Translations under genes and position numbers: made by a program | From: an uncultured bacterium | GTDB taxonomy: Bacteria; Chlamydiota; Chlamydiia; Chlamydiales; FEN-1388 | Assembly (NCBI GenBank): GCA_964409235.1 | Contig: CAYPCN010000001.1 | Location: 79,389-143,388 of the forward strand | Direction: 5' to 3' | Length of the DNA stretch: 64,000 nt | Notes under the pieces: generated by a model | The model's input: the letters and a program-made list of their open reading frames with translations, nothing else | The model's database searches: none | Told to the model about the DNA's origin: nothing | Shown: positions 44,186-44,354 of the stretch, in pieces | Position numbering within the stretch: position 1 is the first letter of the stretch | How the letters are laid out: the number at the start of each line of letters is the position of its first letter

Positions 44186-44354
44186 AAACCATTTGCGATG
44201 TGGGTTTTTAGAGGAGAAGAGGGAGACTTTTGGATCGAGCTACCTCAAAACCGACGAAGCCCATATGCCCTGGCATATGGGAGGAGAGGTTTTGGGTACA
44301 TTCGGCCAAAAAGTATCGTACTCTATCCTCCAAAAGGCTCATCGCGAACGGCTC
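44186..44354 (+). mobile_element. MITE-like hairpin element, full-length copy H (169 bp)
   Basis: Termini are AAACCATTTGCGATGTG and CTCATCGCGAACGGCTC. The interior is collinear with copies A to D. Confidence 0.85.

Follow-up and report, generated by a model that had tools for sequence, protein, structure and literature searches.

An undescribed family of probable hairpin-forming MITEs in a Chlamydiota genome shares its termini with a clade of insertion sequences from metagenomes

The Correia elements of Neisseria are inverted repeats of 100–160 bp that lie densely in intergenic DNA, often beside start codons; they have 26-bp termini, a duplicated TA target and a site for integration host factor (IHF), and are co-transcribed into hairpins able to affect expression. 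Rickettsia palindromic elements (RPEs) are often found inserted, in frame, within protein-coding genes, and we know of no identified transposase or target duplications for them. Repetitive extragenic palindromes (REPs) are described as palindromes of 20–40 bp with GTAG or CGTC heads (PMC3733652). Among insertion sequences (ISs), the accepted IS1182 member ISPse1 is 1653 bp long with 16/16 inverted repeats and a 4-bp duplication (PMC3281130). Here we describe a family of repeats in a 64-kb stretch of DNA (64,000 nucleotides, hereafter the window) from an uncultured bacterium assigned to Chlamydiota, with the copy at 44186–44354, next to rpoD, as the focal copy. The repeats are very probably copies of a non-autonomous DNA transposon, a miniature inverted-repeat transposable element (MITE), and their ends are identical to those of a clade of transposase-encoding ISs found in metagenomes.

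The family is defined by a 17-nt terminus, GAGCCATTTGCGATGTG, which matched the window 18 times over both strands with at most three mismatches. The expectation from dinucleotide-preserving shuffles was 0.19 matches, and none of 100 shuffles reached 18. Four copies are full (160–169 bp) and one is truncated; together with three or four short derivatives and several solo ends they occupy 13–14 loci in either orientation, which corresponds to approximately one locus per 5 kb (Table 1). Element sizes range from 61 to 169 bp, with the terminus at both ends in seven of them, and the pieces sum to 1278 bp, making up 2.0% of the window, which is approximately 90% coding; the remaining sizeable repeats of the window are all members of the same family. 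Full copies are matched in frequency by truncated, internally deleted and solo forms. The full copies proved collinear end to end, both when the four of them were compared with the window by BLASTN and in a search with an nhmmer profile made from the four (E 1e-48 to 1e-55), and their pairwise identities are 75–85%. Each full copy is an imperfect palindrome bounded by inverted GAGCCATTTGCGATGTG; the terminus is followed by a T-run and then by the purine-rich TTTTTAGAGGAGAAGAGGGAG, which has an imperfect complement on the other arm, and further inwards come TTGGATCGAGCTACC..AAAACCGACGAAG and a centre consisting of a perfect 10-bp stem, CCCATATGCC-N4-GGCATATGGG. No coding capacity was found in any copy, and the open reading frames (ORFs) that cross copies are 5′ over-extensions of neighbouring genes.

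An earlier reading made from the letters of the window (the sequence-only reading) had proposed a MITE-like family with collinear full copies in both orientations, and this proposal has held: copies 3825–3992 and 7391–7558 lie one way and copies 14638–14797 and 44186–44354 the other, and the MITE-like interpretation is now supported by target-site duplications, a partner IS and the lack of an Rfam match. The truncated copy that it placed at 17425 was recovered as 17425–17535, with the last third lost. Among its short derivatives, 37468–37528 and 54629–54719 were recovered as such, and 20349–20439 is a diverged derivative at best; the arm fragment at 33592–33638 was confirmed, as was that at 46373–46420, but weakly. 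Its solo termini at 31761 and 62163 stand, whereas that at 58339 proved to be the right end of a 96-bp element and that near 3999 matches at 13 of 17 positions. The claim that all copies are intergenic is correct once ORF starts are corrected by homology, with the reservation that the first base of two copies completes an upstream stop codon and that 62147–62179 sits at a gene junction.

Evidence for insertion came from the flanks. Target-site duplications are exact at three window elements (two of 6 bp and one of 5 bp), and the flanks of three further copies match at four of five positions (Table 1). Related elements elsewhere are also flanked by exact duplications, namely AGGTCG (contig L028), TGGTA (L128), CTAT (L132) and CGATT (L161), as is an autonomous copy in L196. 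An exact junction match of at least 4 bp has a chance of approximately 1/256 per element; exact flank matches far exceed this, and insertion at a staggered cut is thereby shown. Relatives whose RpoD is 91–95% identical had no copy and no terminus on contigs L118 (15.5 kb), L119 (10.3 kb) and L120 (4.2 kb). At the focal site, the coiA-rpoD spacer is approximately 137 bp in L119 versus 332 bp here; subtraction of the 169-bp copy and a 5-bp duplication (332 − 169 − 5) leaves 158 bp, a length compatible with a simple insertion.

The search suggested by the sequence-only reading, for a longer transposase-encoding element with the same termini, was successful. When metagenome contigs were scanned with the exact 17-mer, 76 stretches were returned, several of which had two inverted 17-mers 1.75–1.97 kb apart. 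Both 17-mers are exact in the element of L190, and further elements resembling it were found in L166, L168, L196–L200 and L202–L203 (Table 1). Each has a single ORF of 440–466 aa whose product matched Pfam families PF01609 DDE_Tnp_1 (65 and 46 bits) and PF05598 DUF772 (30 and 43 bits), all over the cut-offs. This is an IS1182-like layout, i.e. a single DDE_Tnp_1 and DUF772 ORF in approximately 1.3–2 kb with short inverted repeats, and the top NCBIfam model for the transposase is that of the IS1182 family (NF033551; 118 and 125 bits). Plasmid-borne relatives of the transposase are 23–29% identical, one of them annotated as IS1182 family. Because its scores fall below the curated IS1182 threshold, the partner IS is not filed here as a member of that family; it appears to be a distant clade, possibly a separate group in the IS5/IS1182 superfamily.

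The transposases of L168 and L137 are 58% and 52% identical to that of L190, respectively, with termini still matching at 17 of 17 positions. Judged from these comparisons, from the second MITE subfamily in the window and from planctomycetote MITEs with another interior (see below), what is conserved is the terminus. The IS left end recurred in identical form, with differing flanks, on at least 12 contigs, in many cases at the contig end. Transposase homologues numbered 4091 at E ≤1e-20, most of them alone on contigs of 1.7–2.5 kb, and the NCBI-sourced records are bulk metagenome assemblies; such isolation on contigs of about 2 kb is typical of a multi-copy IS at which assemblies break. An internal-deletion derivative of the L168 type (602 bp) was found in L178. 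The exact terminus was not found in viral contigs, and tblastn of the partner transposases against the 64-kb window gave no transposase remnant (best E 0.046).

Several observations concern the host range of this clade. In L199 (9240–11209), and likewise in L196 and L200, the IS copy has a Cons_hypoth698 gene on one side and a GntR/TctABC cluster on the other, with MaoC, ECH and sulfite-reductase genes as neighbours on contigs of 47% G+C; since this gene content is not chlamydial-looking, the active IS would seem to occur also in free-living bacteria. An Enterococcus faecalis plasmid (L204; LR962052.1, 15399–16160) carries an unannotated truncated transposase fragment that is 58–61% identical to the partner transposases, adjoins ant(6)-Ia and ends in GAGCTTTTTGCGATGTA, which matches the terminus at 13 of 17 positions; the partner IS copies in metagenome contigs L197 and L198 have GAGCTTTTTGCGATGTG at one end. 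By megablast the plasmid fragment was found in that one record among 72,556 plasmids, and we rejected the idea that it is the truncated IS1182 of Tn5405 because it is unique to its record. The fragment suggests that the partner clade extends to Firmicutes plasmids. A further candidate partner, at 3064–4268 of a gammaproteobacterial metagenome-assembled genome (MAG) contig (L044), was also rejected, being of IS3/IS407 type; its inverted repeats of approximately 40 bp begin TGACCG and hold a similar motif, GAGCCAnnnGCGATGTGGGA, internally, a likeness that is probably a coincidence arising from the degenerate search pattern.

Related MITEs were found beyond the window. Public genome contigs were scanned with a pattern of 15 specified bases and two free positions; among the matches listed most were chance singletons, and only the Planctomycetota MAG D4M11_20 (five loci) was informative. 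Its MITEs, of 72–111 bp, have the same 17-mer and a different, G+C-rich interior, and one of their ends, GATGTTCGTAGCGCGGGC, resembles the L168-type IS left end, GATGTTCGTAAGCG. The window's own family is carried by metagenome JAEAMG01, as a 154-bp element in L132 (E 1.6e-45), an 82-bp mini element in L128 and pieces in L135. With regard to the origin of the arms, GTGCCTTTTGGAGGATAGAGG and GTGGATTTTTAGAGGAGAAGAGGGAG of the MITE resemble by eye the right ends of the partner ISs, for example GTGCCTCTTTTTTGGATGAAGAGGGGG in L190, and the IS left end, GATAGCGTCCAATAAACACGGGGG, has no counterpart in the MITE arms. This suggests an origin of the MITE by inverted duplication of a single IS end, from which the long hairpin would follow.

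In the mechanism that we propose, a DDE transposase supplied in trans would bind both MITE termini, excise or copy the element and insert it at a staggered cut, leaving a target-site duplication of 4–6 bp. The enzyme would come from the clade of 1.75–1.97 kb ISs with identical termini, encoding DUF772 and DDE_Tnp_1 and distantly related to IS1182/IS5, and both MITE arms would derive from the IS end downstream of the transposase gene. A number of points weigh against this interpretation. The autonomous IS was not found in the 64-kb window, the part of the host genome that was scanned, and a source of transposase in this organism is therefore putative. Past the 17-mer, the arms resemble the IS right end over a short stretch, as judged by eye, and the MITE nhmmer model does not match IS ends. 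Duplication length is not fixed (4–6 bp); some MITE copies lack a clean duplication, as do the IS copies of L166, L190, L197 and L198. The NF033551 match stays under its cut-off of 270 bits and covers approximately positions 251–480 of the model, in the C-terminal half, which makes the family assignment loose. Finally, the empty-site comparison at rpoD is one of spacer length only, the intergenic DNA being too diverged to align base-exactly.

The hairpin is what could speak for a different view, that the repeats are genes for, or parts of, structured non-coding or cis-regulatory RNAs and not mobile DNA. The hairpin potential noted in the sequence-only reading is strong: the focal copy has an RNA fold of −72.5 kcal/mol (z = −6.4), and the z-scores of other full copies run from −5.8 to −8.6, all in intergenic positions. 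The DNA, however, folds equally well (focal copy, −35.4 kcal/mol; z = −5.5), and an RNAalifold analysis of five copies showed no net covariation (term +3.24): compensated changes occurred in only 4 of 60 pairs and approximately thirty cells were broken. Mutations mostly break the hairpin, and nothing points to selection for an RNA structure. A known structured RNA had been named as a possible refutation of the MITE interpretation, and Rfam gave none for the element: over the whole window just two tRNAs reached the gathering score, and within 44100–44480 there was no match even at E ≤1. Such RNAs would also be hard to square with copies that lie in both orientations relative to neighbouring genes, are flanked by target-site duplications, exist as truncated copies and solo ends and share identical termini with transposase-encoding elements, and we consider this explanation very improbable. 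Abundant intergenic palindromes could alternatively be REPs or bacterial interspersed mosaic elements (BIMEs) spread by a REP-associated tyrosine transposase (RAYT; Y1, HUH). Against the 20–40 bp and GTAG or CGTC heads given for REPs (PMC3733652), the repeats here are 160–170 bp long with GAGCC termini; they have 4–6 bp duplications, their ends are shared with a DDE-transposase IS, and no Y1 transposase was found among the scanned window genes, so that this possibility is slighter still.

A further proposal adds to a MITE origin instead of replacing it, namely that copies have since been co-opted as regulatory modules, a transcribed hairpin in 5′ leaders or downstream of genes modulating mRNA stability, processing, termination or translation for the housekeeping genes alongside. 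The sequence-only reading had placed copies just upstream of the starts of NrdG-like, eno, serS, rpoD and rng genes, and with start codons placed by homology the distances are 20–77 bp (Table 1). With copies so near, the promoters of these five genes must be located inside the element or on its far side, so that the hairpin is probably part of the leaders, judging from geometry rather than expression; for eno, serS, nrdG and rpoD, copies end 20–42 bp before the likely start. The hairpins are very stable. The purine-rich arm, AGAGGAGAAG, could serve as a source of ribosome-binding sites, and the remnant at 62147–62179 puts GAGGAG 7 nt before an in-frame ATG while overlapping the upstream stop. 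On the tRNA-Leu strand, the truncated copy has a central hairpin that, together with the T-run TCGGTTTTGA behind it, fits a terminator pattern. Set against this, a simple promoter scan found no promoter-like site in the focal copy, and promoter-like and terminator-like sites across copies were not enriched over shuffles. Stem pairs are mostly broken by mutation and the covariation term is positive, copies occur in either orientation and in every intergenic context (divergent, convergent and tandem), and relatives do without the element at the rpoD site. Proximity to start codons is expected in any case where intergenic regions are merely 100–300 bp. Co-option is accordingly an addition that we regard as doubtful. 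Its most far-reaching form, a dispersed regulatory layer in which rpoD, eno, serS and nrdG share the same hairpin in their 5′ leaders and remnants donate ribosome-binding sites or stops, seems to us a little less probable again; if true, core-gene expression would be coupled via a shared RNA structure or a DNA-binding factor recognising the ultra-conserved 17-mer.

Individual copies of the MITE family differ in their contacts with neighbouring genes. The first base of the copy at 3825 completes the TAG stop of a PseB-like ORF (2806–3825), and that of the copy at 14638 completes the TAG stop of the ORF at 13397–14638. At 62147–62179 the TGA stop of the upstream gene overlaps the first two bases of the terminus, and the GAGGAG of the arm precedes the in-frame ATG at 62142 of a downstream gene (60739–62181, 480 aa); no Pfam family matches this gene or the one upstream of it. 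Three upstream ORF stops are thus formed across an element junction (TA|G at 3823–3825 and 14636–14638, T|GA at 62178–62180), and they mark either gene 3′ ends clipped by insertions or the kind of junction that is tolerated. The truncated copy at 17425–17535 is located between the rng start and a tRNA-Leu(CAA) gene (17561–17645, minus strand), and it stops approximately 25 bp from the 3′ end of that tRNA gene. The interior of the diverged derivative at 20349–20439 is similar to GATTTTTGG..GAGCT..CCCC.AAAACC. The element at 58261–58356 has a 62-bp interior that is wholly different from the main family and forms a weak hairpin (z −2.3); it is a second MITE subfamily in the same genome.

Table 1. 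Members of the repeat family in the 64-kb window and partner ISs on metagenome contigs. Strands are relative to the copy at 44186; distances are from the copy to the likely start codon.
Feature	Location	Strand	Flanks or duplication	nhmmer E	Likely start codon (distance)	Details
Full copy, 168 bp	3825–3992	-	GTATA / GCATA	2.1e-53		minimum free energy −85.7 kcal/mol, z −8.6
Weak solo terminus-like GGGCCATTTGCGATAATC, 13/17	3998–4015	+				5 bp past copy 3825–3992; read directly, below the 3-mismatch threshold
Full copy, 168 bp	7391–7558	-	TATTCT, perfect, 6 bp	8.6e-54	nrdG-like ATG 7587 (29 bp)	
Full copy, 160 bp	14638–14797	+	TGGTA / TGGTG	1e-48		10-bp internal deletion; between convergent genes
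Truncated copy	17425–17535	+		3.6e-28	rng ATG 17348 (77 bp)	model positions 2–111 of 168; right arm lost
Diverged 91-bp derivative, weak	20349–20439	.				termini 12/17 and 13/17; read directly; no nhmmer match
Solo terminus GAGCCATTTGCGATACG	31761–31777	+				terminus scan
Right-arm fragment	33592–33638	+		2.6e-08		model positions 122–168, terminus at end; upstream of topA-SWIB gene
Mini element, 61 bp	37468–37528	.	CTCTC, 5 bp			two termini and little more
Focal full copy, 169 bp	44186–44354	+	ATAGT / ATAAT	1.1e-55	rpoD ATG 44144, minus strand (42 bp)	122 bp upstream of divergent coiA-like gene (44477)
Diverged arm fragment	46373–46420	-		0.026		model positions 121–163
Internally deleted copy, 91 bp	54629–54719	+	TTCACA, perfect, 6 bp		eno ATG 54739 (20 bp)	both arms, centre gone
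Element of 96 bp	58261–58356	.	no clear duplication		serS ATG 58382 (26 bp)	same termini at both ends, unrelated interior
Solo left-arm remnant	62147–62179	-		0.0011		junction of two co-directional genes
Partner IS, 1786 bp	L190, 81–1866					both 17-mers exact
Partner IS, 1801 bp	L166, 342–2142					
Partner IS, 1746 bp	L168, 28–1773					65% G+C
Partner IS, 1970 bp	L196, 4168–6137		TGACTC			L199 and L200 hold the same insertion
Partner ISs, 1792 bp each	L202, L203					

The host was assigned to Chlamydiota on the basis of two genes. A DNA topoisomerase I/SWIB fusion (33993–36368) scored 1181 bits on the equivalog model PRK06319, and we take this fusion to be a chlamydial hallmark; RpoD (42483–44144) is of the chlamydia type, with 1063 bits on PRK05901.1-4 and a closest database RpoD that is 95% identical. 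The few homologues of RpoD and Nfo with names are labelled Chlamydia, Parachlamydia, Chlamydiales or Chlamydiia, together with two MAG proteins labelled Verrucomicrobia. The G+C content, approximately 53%, is high for the phylum. Also encoded is an anaerobic ribonucleotide reductase activase of the NrdG type (likely start 7587, end 8279).

Window copies of the MITE differ mutually by 15–25%. We read the family as an old burst in the host lineage that is now decaying, because identities are only 75–85%, truncated, solo and deleted forms occur and survival is intergenic only; it is probably inactive at present. The gene map of a relative whose Nfo is 77% identical shows two genes at positions where the window (2806–8279) has full MITE copies instead: a hemA-like gene, flanked by the pseB-like and adk-like genes, and a kinase gene, flanked by nfo and the nrdG-like gene. 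A MITE-associated deletion or rearrangement may have taken place at the two positions. Two other features of the window are recorded here. Adjacent paralogous genes at 26756–28245 share a 45-nt P-loop-like stretch (26873–26917 and 27622–27666; 76% identical) that is unrelated to the MITEs. A penicillin-binding protein 2 (PBP2; MrdA)-like gene at 37600–40962 encodes 1120 aa, approximately twice the 593 positions of the NCBIfam pbp2_mrdA model, which matches it in three separate stretches.

A chlamydial MITE family at approximately one locus per 5 kb usefully extends what is known of repeat proliferation among intracellular bacteria, and the repeats mark likely assembly and rearrangement breakpoints in the host lineage; those directly upstream of core genes may affect expression. 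The partner IS clade is abundant in metagenomes and has an identical 17-bp end across transposases that are 52–58% identical and hosts of 44–65% G+C. An end so conserved across diverged transposases offers a clean natural system for studying transposase end recognition and for tracing horizontal spread.

Neither MITEs of Chlamydiota or Planctomycetota nor the terminus sequence turned up in the searchable literature. The likeness to Correia elements and RPEs drawn in the sequence-only reading is an analogy only, and judged by description the sequence belongs to neither family. The window MITEs are like Correia elements in their density and position; they differ, by description only, in having 17-bp termini, a 4–6 bp duplication without fixed sequence and a DDE partner IS. 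Like RPEs, they are palindromic repeats that have multiplied in an obligate intracellular bacterium, whereas, again compared by description, the window copies stay out of coding sequence, are flanked by duplications and have a partner IS. The partner IS resembles the IS1182 family, and is comparable in layout to ISPse1, in its one DUF772 and DDE_Tnp_1 ORF, short 17-bp termini and short duplications; it differs in its score (118–125 bits versus 270) and in its 23–29% identity to plasmid relatives. The closest fit is with IS-derived MITEs of bacteria, which are likewise small, intergenic and present in many copies, without an ORF, with IS-identical terminal repeats, duplications, hairpin potential and internally deleted and solo-end derivatives; the Chlamydiota host and the undescribed sequence family set the present elements apart, as does a partner IS known from metagenomes only. 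Small size, no coding capacity, inverted termini, target-site duplications, dispersed copies and an autonomous element with matching termini were all found here, and the repeats are a MITE family that had not been described before and for which a partner IS clade is identified, known in kind and new in family and host.

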